32,000 nucleotides of DNA from Chlamydiales bacterium (GCA_041395025.1 JAWLBH010000001.1:1-32000), one strand, 5' to 3'. Positions 1,805-31,217 are shown, counted from the first letter of the stretch. Program-made: numbers and translations. Notes: a model not told the origin generated them from the sequence alone.

Positions 1805-1918
1805 AATTCTATGAATTAACATGGCTTTTCTCAAAAGGCAATAAAAACGTGTGATGAAATTGATTATATGATACAATGATCTATTATTTTATATGACACC
1901 CAGAAGGAAGGATCAGCC

Positions 1919-2416: not shown

Positions 2417-2730
2417 TGATTAATCGATAGAGATTTTTAAAGGGAATTTTCTGGAATTTTCTGGTTTTTGTCTTTTTTGAATATCTTTTTTAACGATAAG
2501 TCTTTTGAAAAAAGGTTTTTTTAATCTTTTTCTTACTGCCCATCTGTTTTTTCTTTAAGCATCAAGTTAGAGAGTTTTGTCTTTTCCCTTGATTTTTCAA
2601 ATTGCATTCCTCTGATCCTTTGTATTACATTCAATGAATCGGGATGTAGAAAGCGAATAGTTAGGTTGCATTTTTTTCTAAGATTTCGTTAGCCTATTCC
2701 TTATATATCTACATTCATAGGGGAATAGTT

Positions 2731-3186: not shown

Positions 3187-3209
3187 ATTATAAAATAAGG
3201 GTGGACTAG

Positions 3210-14477: not shown

Positions 14478-17400
14478 TTACTGCTTCTTCTTTATTTCAC
14501 CTTTCTTTATTTCACTTTTGCGCTTGTCTAATTTCGCTGAAAGGTCTAAAACATGTTTTAGAAATTCTACACTTTTTTGATGACACTTAGCCTCATCTTC
14601 GGTAAAAGCTTTAAAGGCAACCTTATGGTTAGGCATATCTCCCTCCACAAGTTTACGATATTTTGGAGTTTTTGCTTTTATCTTGATAGTTTGTTGAAGA
14701 TCATTGTTAATGAATGGTAGAAATGGAAACTGATTTAAAAATTCGATATCCTTATAGAGGATCCCTTTTCCTTTCAAATCCCTAAATATCTCTACATTGT
14801 ATTCCATAATAGTTTTTGAAATCTCGATTGATTTTTCTAAGTCTCGTATTTGTTTTTCTAATACTAGGATATTTTCTTGAGTTTGTCTTATCTCCTCTTG
14901 TGACTTTTTTACTTCAGCAATTAGATGAAGAGTATTTTCAAGATTTTGTGCGGCTCCAGGAAGCGTTGAGTTAAATAAATTGTTACAATCATCTACCGTG
15001 CAGCTTGATGCCGTATCTAAATTATTGCCATGAACTATATGAAGGATCATCCCATATATGAAATCTAGTAATTTGGGCTCTGGATAGTTCTCAATCGGCA
15101 TATTGTTATCGAGCTGTTTTTTAGCATTTGTCAGAATACTCCTCATGTCCTCTTTACTTACCAGAATCTTATTTTTAAATTCATCTGGGGTCTTACTCTG
15201 CCATTTTCTCGGATTACCTAGTTTTGAAAAATTTATCTCTAAATTATTCGCTAGTGTAGGGTCTGCTGCAAAGTTTGCTAGGTCGCGATTGATCTCTTGA
15301 AATACCGTTATTGCATACCGTATCATATCTCGATATGCCGTCATATAGTTCGATTGGCTTGCTAGATCTAAATTCGATATATCCATCTGAAGGTTCCATT
15401 TATACCGTGCTGTTAAGTCCGAGTCATCCATTGAAGTTCGTCGTCTATTCAAACCTTCGATCATCCTTTCTGATAAACTAAAACTCTTTGTGTTTCGTAT
15501 CCGGTTAATCATCCCGCGCTGGATCTCACTTATCTTTGTCTCCTGATTAGTTAATTCGGTGTGCATAGTATGAAGTTCCTGCTGTTTCCCTAGTAAATGG
15601 GCATTTATTGATAATGCTTTCGAACTATCTACCCATGGGTATGGGAAATCATCATCTTCAATAGCTTGGATAGCTTGATTAATGTAGTAATTATTCCTAG
15701 GAAATGAGAGGTTGCTATCCAGACCATCACCCCCCGATATCTTGATCTGAACATTTTCACCTATAGATGCTATAGAAATCTCATATTGATAATCTTTTGT
15801 CACTCCAAAATGTTCATTAGGTGTAAAAAGATTCAGTTGAGGCTCTGGCGGTACGATTTCGTAAGTTAGAGTAGGCAATAGGTCCTCTGGGAGAACGTTA
15901 CTAATTTCATAACAGTTGCGTAATGCTGCTGTATTTGGGAATTGACTTGGTTCTGGAATCTGATCTGCATTCGCAAGAGCAAGACCTCGGATTTGTCCCC
16001 ATGTGCTATCAAGGATATCGTCAGGTTTATTCTTTCGAATATCGATGAGTTGTTCTGGTTTTGCTTTTTTTGCAATTTCAGCTTCTTCAAATGTGATTAA
16101 GCAATACCTCCTGACCTCGTCCTGATCTGGATCCGGATTAGAATGAAAAATAAAATGAGAATATGCTCCATCATTTACGACTCCTTGGCTTAAATAAAAC
16201 AACGGTGGTTTATACAACTGTTGATTGCCATTTCTGAAAAGACGAGCAATCATATGTTTTAATTCCTTGCATTCAGATAGTCGTCTCCAGTTCTTCTCAT
16301 CAAGGAAAGAATCATCTACTTCTACAGACTTTTCTTTAGCCATTTGAAGATCTAAACGAGGGAGACCTGGTTGTGAGTGCACTTCAGCCTGAGCTAGTGT
16401 TTCTGTGCATGCTTCTGCTTCCGCTTCTGCTTGTGCTTGCGCTTCTACTTGTGCTTGCGCCTGTGCTTGGACTTGAGAATTAGTATCTAAGATCTCTACC
16501 TTTCTATTTTCAGGATAAACTTTTTTAAATTGATTAATAGAGTGAGCTATTCTATTTGTTGAATAGTGATTTATATATTCATTTTCTTCTTCAAATTCTA
16601 CATCTTTGTTTTCCTCTCTATAATAACGCCTTTTTAATGCTCGATAAGCATTGAATATTTCCTGTATGTTCAATGTAATCTCTTCTTCTATTGTTTCTAC
16701 AAACTCGTCACGAGACATACTTTTCATCGCTTGGCCATATTTACCGTAGAGTTCTTTCTGAGATTCATCGATCAAAGATTGTAATTTATTTCTCCTTTTT
16801 AGAAACATTTTATAGGAATCTCGTATATGCGTATTTCCTACACCATTTTGACTAAAAAAAAGTTTCAGTATTCTACTTTCTAAGTAACCTGCAGCTGTTT
16901 TAAAATGAGCATTCATCTCTTTTTTGAAAATGATTAGAGATTGTTCAATCTCTATATCTTTCTCACAAAGACAGAGATAGCGAGCAATTTCCTTAGCCTC
17001 GATTTTAAAGGGAGGTTTTATACTCCTTATCCTATTCAATTTTTTATTTAATTTCTCGTGTTCGGTCTGTAAGGCAATTATTGGTTCTGATACTTCTTTC
17101 TTCTGGTTTCTTCGTCTATCGTCCAATTTCTTTTGTAGACACGTTAGTTGTTTATTTGTTTCATTTATAGAAATAAGTACTTCATTTTCTAAACGCTTCT
17201 TGACAATGTTACGAAATTGCTCTGTTCCAGCAAAAGAAAATCTTTGTTCAGAGGCTGGATTCACAATATTACGTAAACGTAAAATCGTTTGTTTTGCATC
17301 ACTATTCGTCACATTTTCATCAATTGTGACTAAGCAATGAATCCCCATAGCCTGTTTCACATCTGAACCACGACAGTTTTTTTGTTTATAAAAAGTAAAG

Positions 17401-20400
17401 TACTTTTTACTACTAAGGGCTGCAATTTCCATATCTGTTGTGCAAGGAATCGCTAGCTTGTTTGGGCCACGATAAAGACGCTTGATATTATCTTTTCCGT
17501 AGTAAATGATTCCTTCAATACCATTAAATATCTCTCTTTTGTTTTGGATTTGTTGCCATAATTCCTGAACAACCGTCTCTGGAGTTCCATCACGACTCTT
17601 ACAAATCCCTGCGCTATCTGCAATTGCACGTGTTGAAGACTCACAACAATTAAGCAAATGTTCAATGGTGCTTTTTAGATAATTATTAGAATCTGGAGGT
17701 GGAAACCATTTAACTTCTTGGTTATTTTCTCTTCCCATGATATCAAAGGTCAATAATCCATCAGCAGCAGGATCAGGTGCTTGTTTTTCAAAGTATGAGG
17801 AAGTTCCACCTACTGTCCCTGAACATCCTACGATAAGATCATTGGGAGAGCCTTGTTCGTAACGATTACTTTTTGCACATCCCTGATCAGCTCGTACTTG
17901 TTTGGCTACAACTAATGCTCCAAAAAATTGGCGAAACTTTAGAGTAGGCTGAGCCATAAATTCATTATAAAATTTTTCTTTAGATCGATTTAAATCATCT
18001 ATATCTAGATTTTTAGAGAGTAATTTTAGTTCTTTAATAACTTTATCCGCTGTATCTTTTCCTAAATAGTTTTCACAAAATGGCAATGCCGCATTTTGTT
18101 GGATTTGGGAAATTAAAAAATCTAAATGAGGATTAATAGCAAAACTGGTTTCCAGAGAATTGTAGTAGAGCAAGGTAGTAATAGCAGCGACTTCAGTATT
18201 ATCAAAAATAGAATTTCCTTTAGGATTATTTGCCCCTTCATAAGGAACAGAAATAAGCAAAGAGGCTTTCGAGTCAGCATCATACGAATACTCTCTTGCA
18301 CCTGTTGCCGGATTAATCACAAATCGTGCTCCAAATTCTGTATTAGCTTTTTTGGTAGTAATTATGGAGAGCATATAGCTATCAAGAAGCAACATACGTA
18401 TTAAAAAGATGGTTATATTCCAACGATCATCATGACTAACACAGTCTTTATCCCAATTAAAGTGCTCTGGACTGTATTTTACCTTTGGGTCTATTAGATA
18501 ATCAATTAGGCCAGTCTTGAAATCAGGCAGTGAATTGGGATTCAGCATATGATCAATTAGCTCGCTCGCTCGTTCCTTTTTCTTAGTCCAATCTTTATTC
18601 TTATTTTTTTGAATATAGTCTGTTAGTTCTGCAAGAGGTATAACGATGGCTTCGCGAATAGGGACTTTTTCACCTCGGGTAAAATTGACTTCACGAGATC
18701 TAATATCTTGAGTATCATCCAGCTCATCAAAAATAGTATAAGAGGATAAACTACGAATTTTCGATAACCATGTTTTTGCCTCAAAACGCAAATTGTCTGC
18801 ATCCGAGTATTCATCATTAAGTAATATCTTTGAAAACTCAATTTCTTGGGCTTCTAAAGCACACCGAGTTTCTGGAGGTTGAATCAGAACATCTCCATTA
18901 TTACGCACTTTTTCGTAAAAAGCATATCGGGTTTTTAAATCTTCTAGAATCCAGTGAAAAGATTTTTTGGGGTTTTTAGCATCAATTTGATAGCGTAAAA
19001 ATTCTGTATCTTTGATCACATGACTTCCAAGAATTCCTTGGATTTGATGGTTGAAAGATTTAGCATTATCTTCAAGGACAGCACGAGGAACCACATAACG
19101 TACAAGGTGTCGTTCTTCTTTAGGTAAATTACGTTCTTTTGCAACCTGTGCAATTGATAAAAGGGGAAGTAGGGCAGTTTTACCAAAACCCATACGCGCT
19201 TGAATCGCATCGATGCCTTCTGGATCTTTTTTTCCTAACATCAAAGCACGGAAAATACGTGCTTGCATCATATTACAGCGATTTCCGTACTGACCTTCAA
19301 AAACAAGAAATGTACGTTGAATAATTTGTTCTAAGAGTTTTTCACCTTCCAAGTTCTCTTCAGAAAGAAGATCGACAGAATAATTTCTCTTTGTCTGTAA
19401 TAGCTGAAACTTATTCCGCTCTCCTTTTAAAGGAGCTGCAAAAATATTTTTTACGTGTTGACATTCCGTTTTATAGATTAGGTAGTGTGTCAACGTCTGT
19501 TTTAGGCGAGACTGGGTACCGGGTTTTTCTCCTTCTTGAACTGAAAATTTAGAAAAGTCATTCGTAATATAAGCGTATTTAAGATCTCCCATCGATTGTC
19601 CAGGACGCAACTCTGCTTTTAAAACTGCTTTTGCTTCAAGATAGTGTTGCAAATCTTTCTTATACTTCTCTTTTAATTGAGCCGAAATCTCTTTTTCTGC
19701 ACCTTTTTTAAATGCAAATTCAAAACCTGACTGCGCAGCTCGAGATAAGAAAACATGAAGTCTTTGAATAGCTTGGGTCGTTTCTTTCTCTGTTTTTAGA
19801 CATTGAACAAGAAGAGATCTTAATTCATCTCGCGGAAAATCTTTTCCTAGCCGATCCAAAGAGGCAACACGATAGTAATTGTCGACTGGATCTCGAGTAG
19901 GTTGAATAATATTTAACTCCACTAATTTATTAAAAATCGTTCTAATATCTTCTTTTTTAAGCCCATAAAGCGCTTCACCTTGGCTATTAGTTTGATAATC
20001 TGCGAGCAATGCATCGCAATTAAAGACCCCAATACTTTCAAGATAATACCCTCTGACTTGATCATAGATAATTTTTCTAGATTCTTGTATAAGAGATTTT
20101 TGTGATTGTGAAATCTCTTTTTTAAGGTTTTTTAGTTTTCCTTCAATTTTTTCAGTAGAAAAAATCTGTTCTAGAGGTGTCTTTGTAGCTAGAGCTACTA
20201 TTGTTTTGATAGCCTCAGATTTAGAAAGAGAAGCAGCTGGGGCTTCTTCCTCTATCTCTTGGTCGCTAAATACAACTGGGGCTTCTTCCTCTATTTCTTT
20301 GTTGTTGAATACTTCATTGATCCGTACGAAAAAACCCTGCAAGATTTTTAGGTTATTTTGATCCTGAGAGGCTTGGTCGGACTGTGGGCTTGGTTTAGAA

Positions 20401-23400
20401 TTATTTGTCAAAAAAAACAATATTGTCGATTGATATAACTCCTCTAATTCTTTCCAAATAGGATATGATTTATCGAGAATATGAAGGCATTTTTCTATCT
20501 GCTCAATACTGGTGTCGAGTGGTTGAATAAACTTTTCTACTAATTGTGCTGGATGAGAGGAAGTTTTGCATAGCTGATGGTTATAGTGTTGGTATTCAAT
20601 TAAATGAAGATAGATCTTAAACTGAGTATATTCATTCAGCATGTTTTTACATTCTTTCGAACTCAGTTGATGATTCTTTAAATATTGATCTCCTTCATAA
20701 AAATCGTTGAGTTTCCCTAAGGCTTGATCGTAACCTCCCAGATAATCCAACATTTCTTGTTCTGCTTGAACATTAATCTCTGCGCTATTTTTCTGTTTTT
20801 GATTGTTCTCTATCATAGAAGCCACGTGATCACTATTAGATGCTTTCTGCCTTGCATCTTCTATTGTCTCGTCAATTAACTTTTGTATCTCTTCAATGAG
20901 GGTTAATTGAGTTTGCGTTAAATTGGCTTGAGTATAATGACGACTTAGCTCTTTTATCATGTAATGCACGCTGATTGGATCTTTTTTTTCGATCTCTTTC
21001 AGAGTAATCAGTAGAGCACCTGTGAAGTCTTCTACAAGAGGACTAGAATTTGCCCCTGCTTTATAGAAGACGATTTCTGTAGAATGGTCACATTGAACAG
21101 AAAGGGATTTTTCAATTTCTTGATATTGTTCAAGAGTCTTAGCAGCGGATGATAAATTATTTCTGAAAATATATCTGTCAATCTCCGTTCGATAATAGCT
21201 TAATTTGCCCATGAGATCTTTATAAGAGTATTCTGCCTTTGTAACTATCTTTTCTGGAGCGTCATCATACGGCTCTATATTGTGTTTAACTTCCTCATAC
21301 GCTCGATCCGGAAGAGGGACTAAAAATGTGGTTTCTTGAAGATCCATAAGCTCTTTTTTTAATCGGTGAATTTCTTCTCTTCTTTTTTTCGCATGATAAT
21401 GACTTAAATGGGATCCATCTTTATTTTGCGCTACTTTGTCAAGGTATTCTGCTTTTTTAATTTCTAGTTCTTTTTGTTTGAATTGGGTTTTAGAAATAGG
21501 GTTTTTCAACATCAAAGGTAGGTTTGATCTCTCTACCCCTACTTCTAACACTTTTGTTGTCATACCTGGGCGCTCACATGACCAATGGTCATTGATTTTA
21601 TCAAGATAAATAGTTAACCCAGCAGCAGGAATTAGATATTTATCTTTATTAGAAGAGACAAGAATTTCTTCAGGAGAAAAGTTTTCTAATAGCCTTTCTT
21701 CAAGGTTAGCCTCTTGCCGATCGATTTCGTCTAATCGGTGTGAACAATCCGGTCCCAATAATCCATTTTCTGGATCTATAGGCTGGAATTGCTCTGTAAA
21801 ACCTTCTATATAGATCTCATGTGGTAACCCATTTTGAAATTTCGTCTTTGCAATCAAATTTCCATCTTTTCCATATCCAAAAAGAGTCCTTTCATTATCC
21901 ATCCAAAAATGCTGAATCTTCATGCGATAAAGAAGAGAAATAGGTGCAGTGATCTCTTCCCTAGGAACAAATTGAAGAGTTTTATTATGAGAATTCTTGT
22001 TAGAAAAGCTAGTACTCATATCTTTGTAAACAAGAGGAGTGCGATCTTCTGTTTCTCTAACTATGATTAGAGGATCACCTTTTGAACTAAAATACACATA
22101 ACTTTTTGTAGCTTGATCCCATCGATAAGGAAAGTATTCTATTCCTAAAGTCCGCACGGTTGGATGATTTTGCAGATTAGGAGGGAGGTTCAAAGTTTGT
22201 TCGCCATTTTTATAAACGATCCCTGATAAAATATCTAAAGTGAGGTCATGGCCTAGATCTTTAAACCGAGGATCATCGGTATTGTTATATTGAATATCCC
22301 CTCTTACTCCATTAAAGACCCCATTTTTTAAAAGTCTTTGAGAGGCTGTGTCTGCCTTGTTTTTTTCTTCTTCTAGAAAATTAGCGATCTCTTTTGAATC
22401 GATATTTTTTAGGGTTGCTATGAGTATTTTATCAGATGCGACTAGGCTAGCCTCTGCTTCATCGCATGCACTTTTTAAAAATCCATGAATCTCCTCTTTA
22501 CCTTCAAAGTAGTTAAATTTTATGTGTTGATAAAGCATTTTTGAAACAAGAAAGTCTAGAGCAGTTTGTTTTTTGTTAGAATTCTTAAGAATTTCATTAG
22601 TATTGAATATAATACTGCGTGCATGACCCATAAGAAGGCGATGGATTTCATTGCCTTCAATCAGAGATTGATTAAATCGTAAGATCGCTTTTCTTGTGTC
22701 GAAATTCGGATTCCATTTCTGTAAAATATCTTGATAGAAAATCTTTAGAGGAGGAGCTAAAGTTTCTGGATTACATTCATCATCGTTATTCTCGATTGCT
22801 TCTATCTTATTAGATAGATATTCTAGAGTCTGATCTTCATTCCAAAGATATGCGTGGTTCAAAATTCGAGCAATTTGCTCTCTTTGTTGATAATGATCGG
22901 CTTTAAGATTTACAAGAGGATAGTCTATTAAATCAAATGCAAGTTTATCAACTCCTTGAGCCATAAGAGCATCTAATTTTTGCCTAGTTTCAGGGGTCTC
23001 AGGTAATTTATGGTTATTTGTATCTAGCTTAAATGAGGCTCTTATTAATTCTCCATCCAATCCCTCTAATTCAATAGGGGAGTCTTGTAGTGCTTCGCTT
23101 AAATTTTTTAAATCTTCATAAAATGTTCTAGTGTTATCGTCTGCTTGGTCCAGATCTAAATCGTTATTTTTGATTGTATTAGCCAATCTGTTAAATAGGA
23201 GTTTTTGATCATCTAAATTTAGATTAGAGTGTCTACAGACCTGCTTTAGACGATACGCTGCTTCTTCTGAGCATCGGTTAGGTAAGCTAAAGTATTTGAT
23301 CATCAACCAGTATTTCAAAAAGGTAGCACGTTCTTCATTATGCATCTCTTGTAGATACAGAGTTTTTTGATTGTCTATTGTTTTAGAATATAGATTTAAG

Positions 23401-26171
23401 AATATTTGCTTAATATCATCTGGCGGAGATGTGTTGCTCTTCCAAAATATTTCAAGTACTTCTTGAGTATCTGCAAGGAATATTGATCTCAAAGAAGAAG
23501 GGTAGCCATGTATGTTTGCATATGCATCTAGTTGTTGAATCCATCCGACTTTGTATTCTAATGAATCTAAATCATTATCGCAATAATCTGATAGATCTTT
23601 GCGAATTTGAGTAAGATCTTCGATAAGATTTACAATTTTTCTGTTCTCTACCTTTTCCATCTGAATAAATTCACTGTCAATCTTATAAACTGTTTTGCCT
23701 AACCAGTTGGTACCGTGAGGAGCTAAAACCTCTTGCTGAAAGGAGTCTGCGTGAATTTTATTGGCGGCATCTTTCTGTTTTCTAAGCTGTTCGCCTATAC
23801 TCTTTCGATAATAGCTTAAAACGGTTTCTCTTTTCCGCTCATCTTTCTTGATAGCTTTTTCTTTTTTATCACTTGGATTAGGTAGTTCTTTTAGAATGGG
23901 TATTTCTGTTCGATGATACCGATTGAAGGCAAGACGAGCTTTTTTTAAGCCCTGTTCTCTGATTTCATTATTCCCTTTAGGAAGAGAGAGATTTTTGAAT
24001 GAAATCGAGACAGTATTAATTTGGTAGCCTGTTTTTATTTGAAACCAACTTCTAAAGAAATCAGCCATTTTTTCTTGACGTATTTTTTTGTCCGAAATGC
24101 CTTGAAGAGCCTCTTCTTGATCTCTTGGAAGATGTGTGATCCAAATCTGTACAATTGTTTGATGCCAAGTAGATAAAGCATTACTAACATCGAGGAGCTC
24201 TGCTAGATTCTTAAGATCTAGCTTTGGCCTCTCTTTTTCTTTTTTATTCATTGAATGAGTGTTGTCATTAAAAGGAAGGCTAATTATCCCTTTTTCTATC
24301 GGATCAAGGGCGATAAATTTTTCGATCTTTGAAAGTTGATTAGAAGAAAGATGATCAGCAAACTGCTTTGCAGCTTTTTGAATTTCGCTTAGGACACCTC
24401 GATCACCGATTGATAGATCCTGATTGATTGGTAGATTAATAGAAAAACTATCTTTTTTTGCTAGTTGCAGAGGAGTTTGACACTGAGGCTTTGTCTCTAA
24501 AGCCATATAAAAGACTTTTTCTGCGTACCGATGTTTATGTTTTTCTTTTCGTTCTTCATATGTAGTCAGTTGATGAAACGTTTCGAAATCGCCTACTACT
24601 AAATATCCGAGGCTATCTTCGATAGCTTTATATTCTGATATGTTACGGTCTATTTTTTCTCGATAATCTGAATCAATCGATTGCGGATTTTGAGATAAGA
24701 TAGACAGTTCAGCCTGGTGGATATTACTCATTAGGTTTTTAAAGCATGTGATCAATTCATCATCTGATGAGTCGTCAAAATCTGGCAAATCGCTTGCTAT
24801 TTTTATGAGTTTTTCAGATAATTGCTTATCTACTTTCTTATCTAGCTTATGCTTATCTACTTTCTTATCTAGCTTACCTAAAAGATCATACAATCTACCA
24901 ATTAAGAGTTTTCCTATTTCCTCTCCACCTTTTTCCCAAATGTCTATGAATTGTTCTTTTATTGCCTCTTCGCTCTTTTGTATCTTTTTAAAATTGAACC
25001 TTGCTTTTTTATAATCATCTAAATGTTCTTGCCAACTGTTTATTTGAAGCATAAGCAAGGTTTTGTCAAAACCTTCTTTGGCCTCATCGAATTTTTCTTT
25101 AGCTTTAAGGTGTTTCCATTTTATAAATTCTTTTTCTTTCTTGCCGTAAGAGAAATACCTCTCTTCTTCATCTAATTTCTTATTAATAAACAACTCAATA
25201 TCTTCATTATTAGGACATCCCTTGTAAAAAGACTGCAATTGCGCATATTTAGACAAAACCTCTAGCAAGGTTTTCTCTTGTTTGTGTTGCTCTTCTAAAA
25301 CGCGTAATTTAACATTAGAAGACTCTTTCCGCAGCTGGTTATGTAGTTTTTTATCAGATATTTGGCTCAAATAAGAGTCTATCTCATCTTTTAAAAAAAG
25401 ATGAGGGTAGATAAAAAGACAAGCAGGGTTGCTCCTAATCTCTTCGACGCTCAACGCCTCTGCTGTTTCATCTCTTGTTTCAAAAGCTTTTAAGAAACTC
25501 TCCACTAGATAACAAAAAGCAAGGGGGATGGGGTTTTTGATTTTTCTGGGTTTGATCTTCTGGTCTTGTTTTCCCTTGTCGTCTTCTATAAATCTGCTCA
25601 CCGACTGTTTAAGTTTGGTTTTTATTGTTGATAATTCATTTTTAGGGAGATCGTGATAAGCAATATGCTGGATCGATTCTAATATCTTTTGAATCTCAGG
25701 ATCTTGGTTTTCTTTCCAAGGGTGAATGAGTAATTCATTCATGAGTAAGATGACTTCCTCATGTGTATGCAATTTCGGTTCACTTCCTAAAATCATTTCT
25801 GAAGAAAACGTCGATGTTTGGAGAGCATTTTTACATGTTTGAATGAGATGTTGGTTTTGAGCTGCTTTGGAAGGAAAAAAATAACGTTTCACAGAGATGG
25901 GCATGTCTACGAATAATACCTTCACGTTACGTCCAGTGAGTCTACCTACACGAGCGGTCTGTTTACCTATAGCTTTTATACCTAAAAAAATGTTGTGTGC
26001 TACCTTTTCAGTTAGGGAAACTGTTTTTCTAAGTATTTGATATCCAATACGCGATACTAGACGCCTTGCTCTGTTTTCAACGAGATGTGTGCTCGCATCT
26101 AGTTCACGCAAAAAATTGTCTACACGAGGATGCCTAGATGAATGTTGAGCTGAGTGAAAAGAAGATTCCAT
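14478..26171 (-). CDS. Giant (~3900 aa) protein of unknown function with an internal SF2/SecA-like P-loop NTPase core; candidate secreted effector
   Basis: A single uninterrupted reading frame. The maximal ORF reaches a TTG at 26261. The first ATG (26171, MESSFHSAQ...) is the more likely start, because the 30 codons upstream are A/T homopolymer-like. Motifs: QARMGFGKTALLPLLS (19176-19193), IFDELDDTQD (18714-18728), VGCSGTVGG (17814-17825), NCRGSDV (17361-17375). I saw no obvious signal peptide or TM segment at the N-terminus. Confidence 0.85.
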   Translation of the reverse strand: MESSFHSAQHSSRHPRVDNFLRELDASTHLVENRARRLVSRIGYQILRKTVSLTEKVAHNIFLGIKAIGKQTARVGRLTGRNVKVLFVDMPISVKRYFFPSKAAQNQHLIQTCKNALQTSTFSSEMILGSEPKLHTHEEVILLMNELLIHPWKENQDPEIQKILESIQHIAYHDLPKNELSTIKTKLKQSVSRFIEDDKGKQDQKIKPRKIKNPIPLAFCYLVESFLKAFETRDETAEALSVEEIRSNPACLFIYPHLFLKDEIDSYLSQISDKKLHNQLRKESSNVKLRVLEEQHKQEKTLLEVLSKYAQLQSFYKGCPNNEDIELFINKKLDEEERYFSYGKKEKEFIKWKHLKAKEKFDEAKEGFDKTLLMLQINSWQEHLDDYKKARFNFKKIQKSEEAIKEQFIDIWEKGGEEIGKLLIGRLYDLLGKLDKKVDKHKLDKKVDKQLSEKLIKIASDLPDFDDSSDDELITCFKNLMSNIHQAELSILSQNPQSIDSDYREKIDRNISEYKAIEDSLGYLVVGDFETFHQLTTYEERKEKHKHRYAEKVFYMALETKPQCQTPLQLAKKDSFSINLPINQDLSIGDRGVLSEIQKAAKQFADHLSSNQLSKIEKFIALDPIEKGIISLPFNDNTHSMNKKEKERPKLDLKNLAELLDVSNALSTWHQTIVQIWITHLPRDQEEALQGISDKKIRQEKMADFFRSWFQIKTGYQINTVSISFKNLSLPKGNNEIREQGLKKARLAFNRYHRTEIPILKELPNPSDKKEKAIKKDERKRETVLSYYRKSIGEQLRKQKDAANKIHADSFQQEVLAPHGTNWLGKTVYKIDSEFIQMEKVENRKIVNLIEDLTQIRKDLSDYCDNDLDSLEYKVGWIQQLDAYANIHGYPSSLRSIFLADTQEVLEIFWKSNTSPPDDIKQIFLNLYSKTIDNQKTLYLQEMHNEERATFLKYWLMIKYFSLPNRCSEEAAYRLKQVCRHSNLNLDDQKLLFNRLANTIKNNDLDLDQADDNTRTFYEDLKNLSEALQDSPIELEGLDGELIRASFKLDTNNHKLPETPETRQKLDALMAQGVDKLAFDLIDYPLVNLKADHYQQREQIARILNHAYLWNEDQTLEYLSNKIEAIENNDDECNPETLAPPLKIFYQDILQKWNPNFDTRKAILRFNQSLIEGNEIHRLLMGHARSIIFNTNEILKNSNKKQTALDFLVSKMLYQHIKFNYFEGKEEIHGFLKSACDEAEASLVASDKILIATLKNIDSKEIANFLEEEKNKADTASQRLLKNGVFNGVRGDIQYNNTDDPRFKDLGHDLTLDILSGIVYKNGEQTLNLPPNLQNHPTVRTLGIEYFPYRWDQATKSYVYFSSKGDPLIIVRETEDRTPLVYKDMSTSFSNKNSHNKTLQFVPREEITAPISLLYRMKIQHFWMDNERTLFGYGKDGNLIAKTKFQNGLPHEIYIEGFTEQFQPIDPENGLLGPDCSHRLDEIDRQEANLEERLLENFSPEEILVSSNKDKYLIPAAGLTIYLDKINDHWSCERPGMTTKVLEVGVERSNLPLMLKNPISKTQFKQKELEIKKAEYLDKVAQNKDGSHLSHYHAKKRREEIHRLKKELMDLQETTFLVPLPDRAYEEVKHNIEPYDDAPEKIVTKAEYSYKDLMGKLSYYRTEIDRYIFRNNLSSAAKTLEQYQEIEKSLSVQCDHSTEIVFYKAGANSSPLVEDFTGALLITLKEIEKKDPISVHYMIKELSRHYTQANLTQTQLTLIEEIQKLIDETIEDARQKASNSDHVASMIENNQKQKNSAEINVQAEQEMLDYLGGYDQALGKLNDFYEGDQYLKNHQLSSKECKNMLNEYTQFKIYLHLIEYQHYNHQLCKTSSHPAQLVEKFIQPLDTSIEQIEKCLHILDKSYPIWKELEELYQSTILFFLTNNSKPSPQSDQASQDQNNLKILQGFFVRINEVFNNKEIEEEAPVVFSDQEIEEEAPAASLSKSEAIKTIVALATKTPLEQIFSTEKIEGKLKNLKKEISQSQKSLIQESRKIIYDQVRGYYLESIGVFNCDALLADYQTNSQGEALYGLKKEDIRTIFNKLVELNIIQPTRDPVDNYYRVASLDRLGKDFPRDELRSLLVQCLKTEKETTQAIQRLHVFLSRAAQSGFEFAFKKGAEKEISAQLKEKYKKDLQHYLEAKAVLKAELRPGQSMGDLKYAYITNDFSKFSVQEGEKPGTQSRLKQTLTHYLIYKTECQHVKNIFAAPLKGERNKFQLLQTKRNYSVDLLSEENLEGEKLLEQIIQRTFLVFEGQYGNRCNMMQARIFRALMLGKKDPEGIDAIQARMGFGKTALLPLLSIAQVAKERNLPKEERHLVRYVVPRAVLEDNAKSFNHQIQGILGSHVIKDTEFLRYQIDAKNPKKSFHWILEDLKTRYAFYEKVRNNGDVLIQPPETRCALEAQEIEFSKILLNDEYSDADNLRFEAKTWLSKIRSLSSYTIFDELDDTQDIRSREVNFTRGEKVPIREAIVIPLAELTDYIQKNKNKDWTKKKERASELIDHMLNPNSLPDFKTGLIDYLIDPKVKYSPEHFNWDKDCVSHDDRWNITIFLIRMLLLDSYMLSIITTKKANTEFGARFVINPATGAREYSYDADSKASLLISVPYEGANNPKGNSIFDNTEVAAITTLLYYNSLETSFAINPHLDFLISQIQQNAALPFCENYLGKDTADKVIKELKLLSKNLDIDDLNRSKEKFYNEFMAQPTLKFRQFFGALVVAKQVRADQGCAKSNRYEQGSPNDLIVGCSGTVGGTSSYFEKQAPDPAADGLLTFDIMGRENNQEVKWFPPPDSNNYLKSTIEHLLNCCESSTRAIADSAGICKSRDGTPETVVQELWQQIQNKREIFNGIEGIIYYGKDNIKRLYRGPNKLAIPCTTDMEIAALSSKKYFTFYKQKNCRGSDVKQAMGIHCLVTIDENVTNSDAKQTILRLRNIVNPASEQRFSFAGTEQFRNIVKKRLENEVLISINETNKQLTCLQKKLDDRRRNQKKEVSEPIIALQTEHEKLNKKLNRIRSIKPPFKIEAKEIARYLCLCEKDIEIEQSLIIFKKEMNAHFKTAAGYLESRILKLFFSQNGVGNTHIRDSYKMFLKRRNKLQSLIDESQKELYGKYGQAMKSMSRDEFVETIEEEITLNIQEIFNAYRALKRRYYREENKDVEFEEENEYINHYSTNRIAHSINQFKKVYPENRKVEILDTNSQVQAQAQAQVEAQAQAEAEAEACTETLAQAEVHSQPGLPRLDLQMAKEKSVEVDDSFLDEKNWRRLSECKELKHMIARLFRNGNQQLYKPPLFYLSQGVVNDGAYSHFIFHSNPDPDQDEVRRYCLITFEEAEIAKKAKPEQLIDIRKNKPDDILDSTWGQIRGLALANADQIPEPSQFPNTAALRNCYEISNVLPEDLLPTLTYEIVPPEPQLNLFTPNEHFGVTKDYQYEISIASIGENVQIKISGGDGLDSNLSFPRNNYYINQAIQAIEDDDFPYPWVDSSKALSINAHLLGKQQELHTMHTELTNQETKISEIQRGMINRIRNTKSFSLSERMIEGLNRRRTSMDDSDLTARYKWNLQMDISNLDLASQSNYMTAYRDMIRYAITVFQEINRDLANFAADPTLANNLEINFSKLGNPRKWQSKTPDEFKNKILVSKEDMRSILTNAKKQLDNNMPIENYPEPKLLDFIYGMILHIVHGNNLDTASSCTVDDCNNLFNSTLPGAAQNLENTLHLIAEVKKSQEEIRQTQENILVLEKQIRDLEKSIEISKTIMEYNVEIFRDLKGKGILYKDIEFLNQFPFLPFINNDLQQTIKIKAKTPKYRKLVEGDMPNHKVAFKAFTEDEAKCHQKSVEFLKHVLDLSAKLDKRKSEIKKGEIKKKQ
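16408..16474 (-). repeat. Degenerate GCTTCT/GCTTGT hexanucleotide tract encoding a (Gln/Glu-Ala)n linker inside the giant gene
   Basis: The plus strand reads catgcttctgcttccgcttctgcttgtgcttgcgcttctacttgtgcttgcgcctgtgcttggacttg. It translates on the minus strand to QVQAQAQAQVEAQAQAEAEAEA. Confidence 0.85.
20237..20297 (-). repeat. Two copies of a 22 bp motif spaced 39 bp apart, encoding a duplicated EIEEEAP segment in the giant gene
   Basis: ctggggcttcttcctctatctc (20237-20258) and ctggggcttcttcctctatttc (20276-20297). The protein reads EIEEEAPVVFSDQEIEEEAPAAS. Confidence 0.85.
24825..24878 (-). repeat. 27 bp x 2 tandem duplication in the giant gene (HKLDKKVDK / HKLDKKVDK)
   Basis: cttatctactttcttatctagcttatg (24825-24851) is followed by cttatctactttcttatctagcttacc (24852-24878). 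Confidence 0.9.
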
Positions 26172-26345
26172 GCTAAAAATACCTAATTCTTTATTCTTTT
26201 TTTTTAAAAATAATGCGTTAATATTGTTAAGTTTAAAGGAAAAAGTCTTTTTTAAACACAAAAAAATCTATAAAAAAAATTTATTAAGAGATGGAAGCAA
26301 AAAAGAAATAAAATAAGCGCGAAAAATTAATCAAATCTTAACAAA

Positions 26346-26374
26346 ATTGTAGAAAAAAAAACTAAAATTTTCAA
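26346..26374 (-). promoter_or_regulatory. Candidate sigma-66/70 promoter TTGAAA-N17-TACAAT upstream of the giant gene
   Basis: Minus strand: -35 TTGAAA (26374-26369), an exact 17 nt spacer, and -10 TACAAT (26351-26346). It lies in the 134 bp A/T-rich gap between the iscA-like stop (26396) and the giant ORF. Chance matches are plausible in AT-rich DNA. Confidence 0.35.
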
Positions 26375-26970: not shown

Positions 26971-27243
26971 TCAGAATGAAATTTTTACGCATCCTTTTTT
27001 CAACTTACATTGACAAGCCAATCGTTCATCTTCCATTTCACCCAAAAAATCTTCTTCTTCTTGGGTGAATGGAGAGAGATTTTCCATATGTTCTTCTACT
27101 TTAATGACACAGGTTCCACAAACGCCCTCAGTACATGCAAAAGGCACGCCTGCTTCTTCACAGACATTTGCAATTGAATCTCCATCATTCACTTCATATT
27201 CTTCGTCACTATCTTGAAAGATTATTTTACCCACAATACAAAT
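26971..27243 (-). CDS. fdx: 2Fe-2S ferredoxin (plant-type Cys pattern)
   Basis: GTG start at 27243, preceded by AAGGAG 9 nt upstream. The 90 aa product carries C-x4-C-x2-C (ACTEGVCGTC) and a distal Cys (LACQC). The ORF-track extension to 27378 runs through the tRNA and is an artefact. The position matches CT059 fer, next to flhA. Confidence 0.75.
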   Translation of the reverse strand: MCIVGKIIFQDSDEEYEVNDGDSIANVCEEAGVPFACTEGVCGTCVIKVEEHMENLSPFTQEEEDFLGEMEDERLACQCKLKKGCVKISF

Positions 27244-27319
27244 CTCCTTATCAATTGCAAAAGCAATTATGAGATAGAGGAGATTAAAAAGCGAGTCCAA
27301 ATAGAAGTCGAAAAATGAT

Positions 27320-27394
27320 TCGGAGTAGAGGGATTCGAACCCCCGACCTACTGGTCCCAAACCAGTCGCGCTAACCAAGCTGCGCTATACTCCG
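27320..27394 (-). tRNA. tRNA-Pro (anticodon UGG)
   Basis: Minus-strand sequence: CGGAGTATAGCGCAGCTTGGTTAGCGCGACTGGTTTGGGACCAGTAGGTCGGGGGTTCGAATCCCTCTACTCCGA. The cloverleaf folds: 7 bp acceptor stem CGGAGTA/TACTCCG, D stem GCGC/GCGC, anticodon stem ACTGG/CCAGT with loop TTTGGGA (anticodon TGG, G37), and a T arm GGGGG-TTCGAAT-CCCTC. CCA is not encoded. Confidence 0.9.
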
Positions 27395-27404
27395 AAAAGA
27401 GGAG

Positions 27405-27611: not shown

Positions 27612-28280
27612 ATGAATCAAGAAAAAACAGAACCACCAACAAAACGTAAGCTGAAAAAAGCACGGATGAAAGGGGAGATCGCTAAGTCTTCTTTTTTTGC
27701 AGGCGCCCTTATATTTATGGGAGCAATACTTTGCATCTGGGGATCAGCTACCCTTTTAGGAAGTCGATTTATCACAAGTATGCAAAATGGTTTAAGGAAC
27801 TTTGAGATGGAAGGGGCTTTTGCAAAGGTCATGGGTCCTTTAATTTACCCAGTGATTCTCATCATGGTAGGGATTTTCCTTCTGTCGATTATCGCCCATT
27901 TACTTCAAACAGGTTGGGTTTGGTCTATAGAAACTCTTTACCCTAGGTGGCATAAACCAAAGAGAGAATATCGATTCGTAATGCCAATCTTATACATGAT
28001 TCTTATGATAGGGGGGACCTATTTTGCGATCAAAAGGGGGCTAAATTTGGAGATTTTTTTCATTTCAGTTAAAGAGCAAGGAAAATTTTTTTTTAAAAAC
28101 ATCATGAGATTTTCATCTATAGTGGGAATTTTCTCGATCCTTCTAGGGCTTTGTGATTTTTTCTATCAAAAATCACGCTATTACAAACGGATGTATATGA
28201 CTCCTCAGGAAAAAAATGAGGAACTAAGAGAAGCAGAAGGGAATCCTCATTTAAAAGGGCTTTTAAGAAAACGTCACTAA
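27612..28280 (+). CDS. flhB: FlhB/SctU-family export-gate protein, membrane domain only (no C-terminal autocleavage domain)
   Basis: 222 aa. The N-terminus EKTEPPTKRKLKKARMKGEIAKSS matches the FlhB/SctU start. Hydrophobic segments follow. The protein ends at ...PQEKNEELREAEGNPHLKGLLRKRH, which is the linker (compare Salmonella FlhB ...QSEGDPHVKGRIRQ) that normally precedes the NPTH domain. Confidence 0.7.
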   Translation: MNQEKTEPPTKRKLKKARMKGEIAKSSFFAGALIFMGAILCIWGSATLLGSRFITSMQNGLRNFEMEGAFAKVMGPLIYPVILIMVGIFLLSIIAHLLQTGWVWSIETLYPRWHKPKREYRFVMPILYMILMIGGTYFAIKRGLNLEIFFISVKEQGKFFFKNIMRFSSIVGIFSILLGLCDFFYQKSRYYKRMYMTPQEKNEELREAEGNPHLKGLLRKRH

Positions 28281-28394
28281 AATAGTTTTATGAAAAGATT
28301 TTTTACTAAAAATCTACAAGGGGATAAAACTTTTAATTTTTATTAATTATAATTGATTGCGTAAAAAATCAAGGTTTCTTACACATAAAAAATC

Positions 28395-30239
28395 ATGGGG
28401 GAGATTTTTTATCGTCTACGTAGGCTGGTTACAGATACAGATGCTGTTTTAGCTATTGGGGTATTAGGGCTTGTTCTTTTGCTGATTGTTCCTATTCCTC
28501 CATTTTTACTGGATACGTTGATTTGCTTTAGTATTGTCTTTTCTGTCATGGCTCTTTTATTAACCTTATACATAGAAAATGCCTTAGAGTTTAGTGCGCT
28601 TCCATCACTTTTATTGTTTTTAACGATTTATCGCTTAGGATTGAATATCACCTCGACTCGTATGATTTTAACAGATGGAGAAGGAGGGGATATTATCAAG
28701 ACATTTGGTGGATTTGTGACAGCAGGAAATTTGGTGGTGGGTTTAATCCTATTTGCCCTGCTTACTATTATTAATTTCACTGTAGTCACAAAAGGAGCAG
28801 GAAGAATTGCAGAAGTTGCAGCTCGATTTATGCTAGAAGCTCTTCCAGGAAAGCAACTCGCAATTGATGGGGAACTTACAGGAGGATTGATTAATCAAGA
28901 GCAAGCTAAAGCAGCTAGAGAAAAAATTGCTCAGGAAGCTGAATTTTATGGAGCCATGGATGGGGCATCAAAATTTGTGAGAGGAGATGCTATTGTCGGT
29001 CTTGTTATTACCTGTGTGAATATTTGTGGAGGGTTAGTTGTTGGGCTCACTATGAAGGGGATGACATGGCAAACTTGCTTTGCGATTTTTACACGTTTAA
29101 CGATAGGAGATGGATTAGTTTCTCAAATTCCAGCTCTTTTCACTTCTATTGCAGCAGGAATCATGGTGACACGTGCCTCTTGTGGCAGTCTAGGAAAAAC
29201 TTTGACTAAACAAGTTTTCCATCATCCAAAAGTACTATTGATGGCGGGTGGAACAATGGTGCTTTTGAGTTTTGTTCCAGGAATGCCTATGCTAGTGATG
29301 GTACCTATTGGAGCGATATTTTTGATTTGTTCTTATTTTCAATTTAAAGCAGATACTCCATTAGATCAGAGAGAAAAAAAACCCACATCTTCTCTCTTCG
29401 TTCATCCTTTAGAAATTGAACTTGGATATGAGGTGGTCTCATTAGCTGAGGCTTTTCTACAAAATTTACCCAAGATCCGAAAAACGATTGGAAGACATTT
29501 AGGTGTTTCAGTACCTTACGTTCATATTACAGATCATGCTGAACTTGGACCAACTGCTTGGCGCATGCGTGTGAAGGGGATGGTTGTGGCCTCAGGTAGA
29601 GAAGCAAATTTACAGATTCTAATCAAAATATTCACGGAAATTGCTGAAGAACATATTTATGAGTTATTAAATCGACAGGATATTGCGCAGATGATTCAAG
29701 ATGTTAAATGTTATGATTCAGCTGTTGTGGAAGAGTTAATTGGAAAAAAGCTTACGATAGGTCAACTTGTTAAAGTTTTGCAGAATTTACTTAAAGAGAA
29801 GATTCCCATTCGGGATTTTGTCACGATTTTAGAAATTTTAGCAGATCATGCGAAAGGAGAACGTAGTGATATTATGGAATTAACAGAGGCTGTAAGAATG
29901 GGTCTGTCTAGAGGGATCTCTGAAGAATTTTTTGGAAAAACACATATTGCTTATGCCATTACAGTCGACCCAAAGGTAGAACAAATTCTTGATGTATCCA
30001 AAGGGAAGATACGCCCTGCTATGTTTAATAAACTCATGACCTCTTTGGTCAAGCTCACAGAAGAAGCAGAACAACGAGGGATTCATCCTATTTTAATTAC
30101 TACGGTGACTACTCGTGCAAAACTCAAAAAAATCATAGAAAATAAATTTCCCCAGCTTCCTGTGTTATCTTACAAAGAAGTAGGACAAGATGTAGAAGTT
30201 AAAGAAATTGGTCATCTATCACAAGAAGTTTTAATTTGA
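28395..30239 (+). CDS. flhA: Flagellar-type export apparatus protein FlhA (FHIPEP family)
   Basis: 614 aa. FHIPEP membrane domain (LPGKQLAIDGEL, SKFVRGDAIVGLVIT, QIPALFTSIAAGIMVTR) plus a cytoplasmic C-terminal domain. Adjacent to the sigma-28 gene, as in Chlamydia (CT060/CT061). Confidence 0.9.
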   Translation: MGEIFYRLRRLVTDTDAVLAIGVLGLVLLLIVPIPPFLLDTLICFSIVFSVMALLLTLYIENALEFSALPSLLLFLTIYRLGLNITSTRMILTDGEGGDIIKTFGGFVTAGNLVVGLILFALLTIINFTVVTKGAGRIAEVAARFMLEALPGKQLAIDGELTGGLINQEQAKAAREKIAQEAEFYGAMDGASKFVRGDAIVGLVITCVNICGGLVVGLTMKGMTWQTCFAIFTRLTIGDGLVSQIPALFTSIAAGIMVTRASCGSLGKTLTKQVFHHPKVLLMAGGTMVLLSFVPGMPMLVMVPIGAIFLICSYFQFKADTPLDQREKKPTSSLFVHPLEIELGYEVVSLAEAFLQNLPKIRKTIGRHLGVSVPYVHITDHAELGPTAWRMRVKGMVVASGREANLQILIKIFTEIAEEHIYELLNRQDIAQMIQDVKCYDSAVVEELIGKKLTIGQLVKVLQNLLKEKIPIRDFVTILEILADHAKGERSDIMELTEAVRMGLSRGISEEFFGKTHIAYAITVDPKVEQILDVSKGKIRPAMFNKLMTSLVKLTEEAEQRGIHPILITTVTTRAKLKKIIENKFPQLPVLSYKEVGQDVEVKEIGHLSQEVLI

Positions 30240-31165
30240 TGGAAAGAAAAAAAAATATTGCGGAAATTAAACGTTTAATCAAAGAAAAAAAAGATCTCTA
30301 CCCTCTAGTCGGAAGATCAATTCCTTATCAAAAGAACACTGATAGTAAAAACCTATCTTTGTCTTACTTCTCTGGATTTAAGGATAGTAAGCCATATGTT
30401 GAAAAAGAGTCGAGAGAGTCTATTTTAGCTTTAACTCATTTCTTACTTTCTAAAGGGATTTCTCAGAAGATTATCCAAAAAATTACCCTGCCATTTTTAG
30501 GAAAAAGCTGGTCGATGGATGAGTTAAAGAATTCTCTTGTGAAGGAGATAGAGACTGTAGGGGATCTTGCTGTTCCTAATCGTCTTGCCCTTGTTGGGCC
30601 AACTGGGGTAGGGAAAACAACAACCATCATGAAACTAGCAAAGTACTATAGCCATCGAGATAAAACTGTGGCGATTGTAGAATTAAATAAAAAAGCTCAC
30701 TATTCCCAGCTTAAGCATTATAGTGATCAAGAAGGAATTGCCTATTATCAGTCGCTAAACAAGGTTGAGGGAGATCTCATTTTAATCGACACTGAAGGGT
30801 GTAATTTTTACCAATCTAATCAAATTGATAATCTTGGAGAGCAACTCTCATCTTTTCGCCCTGTTGAGATTCTTCTTACTTTAAGTGCAGCTACTAAAGA
30901 AGTTGACTTATATGGAGCAATTCACCAATTTTCTCCTTTATGCCCAAATAGTCTGATTTTTACTAAGCTTGATGAGACTCTTACGAGTGGGATATTGATC
31001 AATATCGCATCTAAAACAGATCTTCCAATTCGTTATATTACATCTGATTTTCCTCTACCAGGTAAGGTAGAAATTGCGAATCCTTATAAGATTATTCACA
31101 AAATTCTGACTGAATTCAATAAAAAGGAATTTAATCAGATCAGATATTTATCATTGTATAATTAA
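30239..31165 (+). CDS. flhF: FlhF-like SRP-type GTPase
   Basis: G1 LVGPTGVGKTTTIMKLA, G3 LIDTEG, G4 FTKLDET (FlhF-typical TKLDET). The ATG at 30239 overlaps the flhA TGA in TGATG. The ORF track begins at TTG 30236. Confidence 0.75.
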   Translation: MERKKNIAEIKRLIKEKKDLYPLVGRSIPYQKNTDSKNLSLSYFSGFKDSKPYVEKESRESILALTHFLLSKGISQKIIQKITLPFLGKSWSMDELKNSLVKEIETVGDLAVPNRLALVGPTGVGKTTTIMKLAKYYSHRDKTVAIVELNKKAHYSQLKHYSDQEGIAYYQSLNKVEGDLILIDTEGCNFYQSNQIDNLGEQLSSFRPVEILLTLSAATKEVDLYGAIHQFSPLCPNSLIFTKLDETLTSGILINIASKTDLPIRYITSDFPLPGKVEIANPYKIIHKILTEFNKKEFNQIRYLSLYN

Positions 31166-31217
31166 AAATAATTAATTAAACTATGAATAGGGTTTTTTAT
31201 ATTCTGGTGATTTTAAT

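Follow-up and report, generated by a model that had tools for sequence, protein, structure and literature searches.

The question raised by the first 32,000 nucleotides (nt) of contig JAWLBH010000001.1 from a Chlamydiales bacterium (GCA_041395025.1), the window analysed here, is what kind of protein is encoded by the single giant minus-strand gene that dominates it. A first-pass annotation, made from the sequence alone, had described a largely unrecognisable protein with a nucleoside triphosphatase (NTPase) core and had proposed a secreted, host-directed effector. The gene itself is real: positions 14478..26261 of the minus strand form one unbroken open reading frame (ORF) of 3,927 codons counted from a TTG start, covering 36.8% of the window (37% in the annotation), and the 3,897-amino-acid (aa) product matches the NCBI entry 'MAG: hypothetical protein R3E91_00065 [Chlamydiales bacterium]', on a 1.32 Mb contig, at 100% identity from end to end. 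At the guanine-plus-cytosine (GC) content of the region, 36%, about 7% of random codons would be stops, which by our arithmetic gives a probability of ~e^-283 for so long an open frame, so that it cannot be a product of chance. The protein is not an orphan: sequence comparison places it in a conserved family of giant bacterial ATPases of amoeba-associated Chlamydiae and Legionella, and shows this family to be a divergent bacterial offshoot of the DUF3638/DUF3645 superfamily. Homology extends over at least 1,100 residues, and the distant relatives concerned are uncharacterised giants of protists and fungi.

The coding sequence is taken as 14478-26171 because the database protein is identical from the ATG at 26171 and orthologue alignments begin at the Met encoded there. 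This ATG is likely to be the true start, yielding 3,897 aa, and the in-frame TTG extension ahead of it is probably untranslated. Residue numbers below follow this frame.

The description of the protein as largely unrecognisable holds for curated libraries. Pfam returned DUF3638 alone (aa 2303-2506, 23.3 bits, expect value (E) 4.6e-5), below the gathering score of 31 bits; NCBIfam gave no match; none of the PADLOC families matched at E up to 0.1; and searches of PDB sequences with the protein, with the family profile A3 (3,248 positions, C-terminal columns included), with a mid-module profile and with a core profile gave only coiled-coil noise or nothing. The description fails for relatives, as ~3,000 residues are conserved in collinear orthologues aligned by blastp. 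A word-index homology search returned only the protein itself when queried with the full sequence, and only itself and distant DUF3638 proteins when queried with the family alignment; a genome scan with the single giant protein as query gave no loci. Relatives were found by exhaustive phmmer with aa 2102-3301 as query, and genome loci by an alignment- and pattern-based scan of one genome per species. The phmmer search identified 90 proteins, most of 3,000-5,200 aa, 65 of them at E <1e-30.

Pfam DUF3638 is matched by 10 of 11 relatives (best E 1.3e-10), with Legionella relatives exceeding the cut-off at 36 and 32 bits, and the weakest phmmer matches are DUF3638 (and DUF3645) proteins of ~3,000-3,500 aa that carry the domain at an equal relative position. 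A further relative, found by profile search in Chromera velia, is auto-named 'ubiquitinyl hydrolase 1'. Comparison by hhalign of the chlamydial alignment (A1) with an alignment of 14 DUF3638/DUF3645-type proteins (A4), whose members carry PF12340 (DUF3638) and PF12359 (DUF3645), gave a probability of 100% and E 1.1e-54 over 810 columns, a match that spans the pre-ATPase helices (from aa ~2190), both ATPase lobes and the intervening insertion. A second collinear match joins aa 1306-1562 to aa 1149-1423 of the canonical protein P0083 (probability 89.7%, E 1.8e-6, 219 columns). PF12359 has no Pfam match in the giant protein at E up to 1; in hhalign, aa 2640-2661 (VPYEGANNPKGNSIFDNTEV) align with the 'AIPY..SNTPN..S.F' block where P0083 has its PF12359 match, and P2643, Y2644, P2650, K2651, N2658 and E2660 of this block are invariant in the family alignment. 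The first-pass annotation had recognised no family outside the NTPase, a statement that does not survive for aa 1306-1562 and ~2190-3000, which account for the homology to the superfamily. Comparison by hhalign of the N-terminal halves and C-terminal regions with the DUF3638-type group revealed no further relationship.

The A4 consensus includes, in its N-terminal ~130-330 columns, a 'LIPGGW..GH..LYE...N.G.G...H ... QRxGTC' motif without a Pfam match. This motif may mark a cysteine-peptidase-like domain of the His-first type and account for the 'ubiquitinyl hydrolase' auto-names. The hhalign comparison of N-terminal halves found no counterpart of this GGW..GH..LYE ... QRxGTC motif in the chlamydial family, in whose alignment no Cys or His ahead of aa 1900 is invariant. 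P0083 itself (L004 4349-13591) is a canonical DUF3638+DUF3645 protein of 3,080 aa encoded near murE, ftsI, rsmH, an amidase gene and DUF5399; as we take DUF5399 to be a chlamydial family, this context looks chlamydial, and Chlamydiae probably carry both the divergent and the canonical kind. A 1,404-aa ORF without annotation on record precedes the P0083 gene. DUF3638 has been described as widespread in eukaryotes, with undefined function (PMC12615304), as a large gene family in microsporidia (PMC5423893) and among lineage-specific genes in fungi (PMC6237848). No functional study was found in the literature on DUF3638, DUF3645 or giant chlamydial or Legionella proteins. At family level the protein is therefore not undescribed, as the first-pass annotation had supposed, but uncharacterised.

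The relatives form two subtypes in blastp comparisons. Type I, which is chlamydial (P0002-P0028; 2,968-4,137 aa), is collinear with the giant protein over nearly its full length; identity is 22-29% in the stretch aa ~10-1760 and rises to 30-39% in aa ~1985-3890. Type II, from Legionella and Parachlamydiaceae (P0036-P0061; 4,019-5,187 aa if full-length), has only aa ~1020-1580 and ~1990-3190 in common with it. Identity in the ATPase core is 43-69% among type I proteins, 58-84% among Legionella type II proteins, 44-49% between Parachlamydiaceae and Legionella type II proteins, and 32-38% between the types; for the subtype common to Legionella and Parachlamydiaceae, the comparison with the other subtype gave 32-36%.

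The genome scan identified 48 loci. Type I is present in Waddlia chondrophila, Simkania negevensis (at least two or three copies), Parachlamydiaceae, Rhabdochlamydiaceae and several uncultured Chlamydiae; type II is present in at least 10 Legionella species, including L. brunensis (2 copies), L. shakespearei, L. pneumophila subsp. fraseri, L. lytica, L. rowbothamii, L. quateirensis, L. norrlandica (3 copies), L. saoudiensis and L. drancourtii, in Legionellales metagenome-assembled genomes, and also in Parachlamydiaceae. Several genomes have 2-3 family copies, and most copies are intact giant ORFs of 3,265-4,857 aa. The chlamydial origin of metagenomic members is confirmed by their neighbours, one adjoining two TLC ATP/ADP translocases and another a TopA-SWIB fusion. 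One locus labelled Pseudomonadota (JAUPUP010000227.1) encodes a full-length type I orthologue of 3,593 aa flanked by RuvC, type III pantothenate kinase and a PpiD-like rotamase, which do not settle the bin label.

Gene contexts vary from genome to genome, and sucAB, lpdA, iron-sulfur (Fe-S)/ferredoxin genes or flhBA, as in the window, lie beside the gene in none of the 48 loci. Upstream of the closest relative, P0002 (L002 1-2421), are an RHS/YD-shell toxin gene with an Imm53 immunity gene, a 1,254-aa ORF without a Pfam match and a tetratricopeptide-repeat protein gene, amounting to a conflict or effector-type neighbourhood. Among Legionella homologues, that of L. quateirensis is adjoined by a gene for an 876-aa RasGEF-domain protein (L037 14386-17016, minus strand) and that of L. 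saoudiensis by a gene with a weak SP-RING/MIZ match (L044 14708-16291, minus strand); the other neighbours have no Pfam match.

The NTPase core noted in the first-pass annotation is upheld. An AlphaFold model of aa 1985-3180 (m55774b110375), built from a 34-sequence alignment, reached a predicted local distance difference test score (pLDDT) of 86.4 and a predicted template modelling score (pTM) of 0.83, and together with Foldseek indicates two tandem RecA-like alpha/beta lobes. The top Foldseek matches in PDB are all superfamily 2 (SF2) helicases, RIG-I being the best (E 1.9e-3, probability 0.98), with further matches to MDA5, UvrB, DdmD, SNF2 and XPB/XPD. Motifs I, II, III, V and VI of SF2 helicases are all present and invariant in family alignments (of 11, 47 and 28 relatives): G2328, G2330, K2331, T2332, D2482, E2483 and D2485 in the first lobe, and S2784, G2785, T2786, R2934, D2937, K2960, Q2961, R2965 and R2967 from motif III onwards. 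On the model and these alignments, the core is classed as an SF2 helicase-like ATPase with intact catalytic motifs. Invariance of the catalytic residues argues for an active enzyme under purifying selection, and ATPase activity is predicted for the motor.

Around this motor the protein is divided into regions of unequal conservation (Table 1). The mid module is common to both bacterial subtypes in blastp comparisons; its AlphaFold model (m046aaf50423a; pLDDT 81.3, pTM 0.56) had no significant Foldseek match in PDB (best E 0.35) or among viral models, and D1313, G1317 and Y1320 are invariant in its beta-rich domain. A QxxGFYxExxGLF motif at aa ~2038-2050 in the pre-ATPase region is conserved in both subtypes, and blastp matches to Legionella-type proteins extend to aa ~3175-3190. 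Sequence comparison reveals lineage-specific ends (~1000 residues at the N-terminus and ~700 at the C-terminus), neither of which has a match in any library: aa 1-999, without a Pfam match, are conserved only within the chlamydial subtype (22-29% identity), and the C-terminal region, with no Pfam or PDB sequence match, is 30-39% identical in chlamydial-type orthologues, with E3363 and A3364 invariant. In-frame repeats on the minus strand, namely AQ/AE at 16410-16469, two copies of KLDKKVDK at 24823-24876 and two of EIEEEAP at 20232-20297, all lie within poorly conserved linkers; runs of A, Q and E like AQAQAQVEAQAQAEAEAEA also occur in the orthologue consensus, and the Gln/Ala/Glu repeat is a probable flexible spacer.

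Several descriptive statements of the first-pass annotation agree with this anatomy. Lys/Glu-rich stretches do alternate with globular-looking blocks, as composition and models indicate, the N-terminus is polar and Ser/His-rich, and no transmembrane segment is present, the peak Kyte-Doolittle 19-residue mean being 1.92, within the ATPase core, and 0.82 in the N-terminal 160 aa. Its numbering of a globular block from residue ~1180 was ~100-130 too low, NGVFNGVRGD starting at aa 1283 (1313 in the TTG frame).

Table 1. Features of the giant gene, its upstream flank and its product, in window coordinates.
Feature	Position (nt)	Strand	Residues (aa)	Description
Giant-protein coding sequence	14478..26171	-	1-3897	3,897 aa + stop; ATG at 26171; from ORF listing, translation, database identity and orthologue N-termini
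TTG-started in-frame extension	26172..26261	-		30 codons; AT-rich, low complexity; not in database protein; no orthologue counterpart
Sigma-70-like promoter candidate	26346..26374	-		TTGAAA-17-TACAAT; within 224-nt gap upstream of ATG; 10/12 consensus matches
N-terminal region	23175..26171	-	1-999	Polar Ser/His-rich start; amphipathic helices aa ~35-110; K/E-rich helical and coiled-coil
Mid module	20862..23174	-	1000-1770	Alpha-helical repeat aa ~1012-1285; beta-rich domain ~1300-1560; then helices
Beta-rich domain	21486..22256	-	1306-1562	Homologous to DUF3638/DUF3645-type domain (hhalign)
Acidic linker	20217..20834	-	~1780-1985	Poorly conserved; alignment occupancy 0.07-0.57; EIEEEAP duplicated
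Pre-ATPase region	19242..20219	-	1985-2310	Small alpha/beta domain(s), then long helices; both subtypes
First RecA-like lobe	18654..19241	-	2311-2506	Pfam DUF3638 region; alternating strand/helix
Walker A, ARMGFGKT	19176-19199	-	2325-2332	GFGKT = 2328-2332
Walker B, FDELDD	18714-18731	-		DELD = aa 2482-2485
Insertion, ~250 aa	17895..18653	-	2507-2759	Between Walker B and motif III; mostly helical
Conserved block VPYEGANNPKGNSIFDN	18189-18254	-		Within insertion; aligns to DUF3645 motif (hhalign)
Motif III and second RecA-like lobe	17220..17894	-	2760-2984	From invariant residues and Foldseek
Motif III, GCSGT	17814-17828	-		SGT = aa 2784-2786
RGSD	17352-17375	-	2934-2937	Motif V position
KQxxLRxR	17268-17297	-	2960-2967	Arginine-rich motif VI
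Long post-ATPase helices	16632..17219	-	2985-3180	Helices of 20-50 residues; conserved into Legionella subtype
Gln/Ala/Glu repeat AQAQAQVEAQAQAEAEAEA	16410..16469	-		Tandem repeat finder
C-terminal region	14481..16304	-	3290-3897	Small beta-containing block FYLSQGVV...CLITFEEAEIAKK, then helical

The reading that we prefer, and to which we would give an even chance, is that the gene product is a functional giant ATPase from a divergent DUF3638/DUF3645 branch and is delivered to the host as an effector. We infer the host cell as the site of action because the 48 loci are restricted to amoeba-associated intracellular bacteria of two unrelated lineages with different secretion systems (Chlamydiae and Legionella/Legionellales), because one subtype spans Legionella and Parachlamydiaceae, because copies are multiple and non-syntenic, and because the sole wider relatives form a family that the literature describes as eukaryotic; the acidic C-terminal tails of Legionella, not chlamydial, members and the RasGEF-domain gene beside the L. 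quateirensis copy point the same way. RasGEF is a typical eukaryote-like effector domain, and a Glu/Asp-rich 'E-block', placed ~10-17 residues before the C-terminus, is described for substrates of the Dot/Icm system. The Asp/Glu fraction at positions -18..-6 of 19 Legionella-clade proteins is 0.30 against a background of 0.15, whereas chlamydial members, at 0.12-0.17, have no such enrichment; the tails of the Legionella proteins, which are partly related to each other, fit the Dot/Icm pattern in a way that is suggestive only. The effector hypothesis of the first-pass annotation is therefore plausible and somewhat strengthened by indirect support from distribution, eukaryote-type homology, paralogy and Legionella tails, but unproven, secretion and translocation into the host being inferred only. 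The giant protein may be regarded as a good, still unproven candidate for an unusually large host-directed effector.

A number of observations weigh against this reading. Structural resemblance of the core to SF2 proteins is slight, with marginal Foldseek E-values and low template modelling (TM) scores (0.16-0.27); sequence profiles had no match among solved SF2 proteins in PDB, and hhalign comparisons with E. coli SecA, RapA, UvrB, DeaD and RecG were not significant, the best of the five (RecG, E 0.01) covering Walker A only. Four copies are broken (L019, L022, L040 and L015, with longest open frames of 2,430, 780, 451 and 2,812 aa); orthologous matches at these loci span most of the protein despite the short frames, and they are either pseudogenes or assembly/long-read errors. 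Fragmentation in relatives, which the first-pass annotation had named as a reason to abandon its view, is thus confined to a minority of assemblies. To our knowledge, proteins of 3,900-4,800 aa are larger than well-documented substrates of type III and Dot/Icm secretion. Close orthologues also conserve LDxF..ELD...ARVGYH, immediately following the N-terminus, which is not typical of a mere secretion leader. The giant gene has the same GC content as its neighbours, arguing that it is not a recent acquisition, and the type III chaperone gene Slc1 lies 12 kb away, with no chaperone gene adjoining.

The main alternative is a cytoplasmic machine that stays inside the bacterium, where the SF2 motor would work on the cell's nucleic acid or protein, for example during development, in maintaining the genome or in intragenomic conflict, and the eukaryote link would reflect old horizontal transfer without an effector role. 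Such a machine, which we consider rather unlikely, would account for the absence of a signal peptide, transmembrane segment or demonstrable secretion signal, for a size above that of usual secretion substrates, for the conserved N-proximal motifs, for the unremarkable GC content, and for a housekeeping setting with sucAB-lpdA on one side and Fe-S and ferredoxin genes on the other. It leaves unaccounted for the confinement of the family to amoeba-associated intracellular Chlamydiae and Legionella/Legionellales, its multiple non-syntenic copies without partner gene or operon conservation, its eukaryotic-type wider relatives, and the acidic tails specific to Legionella members. An Inc-like giant scaffold, secreted by type III secretion and held in the inclusion membrane by an N-terminal hydrophobic hairpin with ~3,800 aa facing the host cytosol, is improbable. 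Orthologue P0002 has hydrophobic segments at 55-80 and 87-111 (Kyte-Doolittle means >=1.85), two adjacent lobes that recall Inc proteins, P0003 has one at 55-86 (mean 2.26), and P0004, P0006, P0010, P0013, P0018, P0021, P0023 and P0028 have single segments (aa ~35-70) with means of 1.7-1.9, but such N-proximal helices may simply be buried and many orthologues have no segment >=1.6. The giant protein has no Inc-type bilobed hydrophobic domain (~40-60 aa, near the N-terminus), the aligned segment being amphipathic and rising no higher than the N-terminal peak given above.

Two further explanations are less probable again. A mobile-element or defence protein is very improbable, whether pictured as a 'polyvalent' helicase giant carried by a phage or conjugative element or as a component of anti-phage defence: giant size with an SF2 motor, non-syntenic and multiple copies, DdmD and Hachiman helicases among the weak structural matches, and a tRNA-Pro gene 1.1 kb upstream would be in keeping with it, yet PADLOC has no matching model, Pfam no nuclease or methylase domain, the window no direct repeat of the tRNA, and neither the window nor the Legionella and chlamydial flanks any integrase, transfer or phage genes. 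It is scarcely credible that the protein is an adhesin or large cytotoxin comparable to lymphostatin (LifA/Efa1), the chlamydial cytotoxins or polymorphic toxins. Some Chlamydia species carry ~3,200-aa cytotoxins, and size is what favours the comparison, but a signal peptide is absent, none of the 90 homologues is of such a type, and Pfam at E up to 1 detects neither a glycosyltransferase or cysteine-protease domain nor RHS/YD or haemagglutinin repeats. The absence of lymphostatin/large-cytotoxin, adhesin or polymorphic-toxin domains in Pfam, together with the lack of a sequence match among solved structures, is consistent with the earlier view that the protein belongs to no characterised family.

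In the preferred reading, the action of the giant ATPase can be envisaged as follows. The motor would close and open as ATP is bound and hydrolysed between its two lobes, in a cycle that clamps, travels along or remodels a polymer, whether RNA/DNA or polypeptide. The motor (aa ~2250-3000), with its helical stalk, is coupled to the helical-repeat scaffold and beta-rich domain (aa ~1000-1560) located ~700-1,000 residues upstream. Substrate or partner proteins would be gripped by the insertion and the mid module, and the lineage-specific N-terminal ~1000 and C-terminal ~700 residues would give targeting. Delivery into the amoebal or protist host cytosol would be by type III secretion in Chlamydiae and by Dot/Icm type IV secretion in the Legionella relatives, and there the protein would copy, compete with or subvert DUF3638/DUF3645-type machinery belonging to the host itself. 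A bolder form of this proposal, which we think doubtful, is that the family members, at 3,300-4,900 aa, are the largest known secretion substrates and form a trans-kingdom set, namely RIG-I/SecA-like ATPases that are injected by type III and Dot/Icm systems and copy or jam an as yet uncharacterised protist DUF3638/DUF3645 machine. In that bolder form the protist machine might be a surveillance or immune-type ATPase, given the lineage-specific expansions in microsporidia, ciliates and fungi, and the bacteria would keep the motor and substrate-binding module and swap the peptidase-like head for lineage-specific targeting regions.

The neighbours of the giant gene are typical chlamydial housekeeping genes. 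On its 3' side, a block of Slc1/CesT, ssb, pepA and Hc2 is followed by sucA-sucB-lpdA, which converge on it; upstream and on the same strand lie tRNA-Pro, ferredoxin and an Fe-S assembly gene, and farther out a flagellar-type flhB/flhA/flhF/sigma-28 cluster. The Slc1/CesT gene (1919-2416), read in the first-pass annotation as a pointer to type III secretion, does indicate that the organism has such a system, but it is a member of the conserved housekeeping block with ssb, pepA and Hc2 and says nothing specific about the giant gene. The promoter in Table 1 is retained as a candidate only, because sigma-70-like sites in the region are no more numerous than in shuffled sequences. A 151-aa ORF between a radical-SAM gene and sucA (8480-8935, minus strand) has no Pfam match.

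The ferredoxin ORF (26971-27378), when extended to a TTG, runs at its 5' end into the tRNA-Pro(tgg) gene (27319-27395, minus strand) and must therefore start farther downstream. A tRNA-anchored island at this site was considered and rejected, there being no tRNA repeat in the window and no integrase. The flagellar-type paralogue cluster (27612-31991, plus strand) encodes an FlhB-like protein, an FHIPEP/FlhA-like protein (614 aa), an FlhF-like SRP54 GTPase and a sigma-28-like factor; the FlhB-like ORF is short (222 aa, covering only positions 1-235 of a 335-position profile), and the gene may be split or degenerate.

Present results tie ~70 'hypothetical proteins' of Chlamydiae and Legionella to one family with a domain map. 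The intact state of a bacterial DUF3638/DUF3645 branch in two unrelated amoeba-resident lineages suggests that the family acts at the host-microbe interface, and culturable Legionella species, Waddlia and Simkania offer tractable homologues for DUF3638/DUF3645 biochemistry and genetics. If translocation proves true, the size range of type III and Dot/Icm substrates would be extended and an ATP-driven motor would join the effector repertoire.

Among known systems, lymphostatin and the chlamydial large cytotoxins come from intracellular or attaching pathogens, are very large and have been proposed as secretion substrates; the giant protein resembles them in size, and differs in fold and family, with no shared domain (no glycosyltransferase or protease motifs). 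RIG-I/MDA5-type and other SF2 proteins (UvrB, SNF2, DdmD) share with it the two RecA-like lobes, motifs I, II, III, V and VI, a helical insertion and a helical element after the second lobe, and provide its best structural matches. The insertion of RIG-I is located inside the second lobe, whereas that of the giant protein lies between motifs II and III; there is, moreover, no detectable sequence relationship, TM-scores are low, no nucleic-acid-binding motifs were identified, and the motor is part of a ~5x larger protein. By eye, the position of the insertion between motifs II and III and the series ARMGFGKT, DELD followed by a large insertion, G-C-S-G-T, RGSD and Q...R.R recall SecA, a likeness that neither hhalign against E. 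coli SecA (E 0.16-0.26) nor Foldseek (SecA not in the top 50 matches) supports, so that the resemblance serves as a lead and does not amount to a result. The literature mentions 'SecA-like helicase-related domains' for effectors of the amoeba symbiont Amoebophilus (PMC3482391).

The DUF3638/DUF3645 giants of microbial eukaryotes (PF12340, PF12359) are likewise ~3,000-5,000 aa long and uncharacterised, with the ATPase ~two-thirds along, and share ~810 columns of homology, including the insertion with the block that aligns to PY..NTP..S.F, and the collinear beta-rich mid domain. The giant protein differs from them in scoring 23 bits against a cut-off of 31, in a core identity of only ~23-28%, in lacking their N-terminal peptidase-like motif, in its unrelated N- and C-terminal thirds, and in being encoded by intracellular bacteria (although Chlamydiae probably also carry the canonical type, such as P0083). 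The 4,500-4,900-aa proteins of Legionella and Parachlamydiaceae exceed the giant protein by ~800 aa in length and are unrelated to it in their N-terminal ~1,500 and C-terminal ~1,100 residues, and the Legionella members have acidic C-terminal tails and pass the Pfam DUF3638 cut-off; with the giant protein they share the mid module (aa ~1020-1580) and aa ~1990-3190 at 28-36% identity, together with identical invariant catalytic residues.

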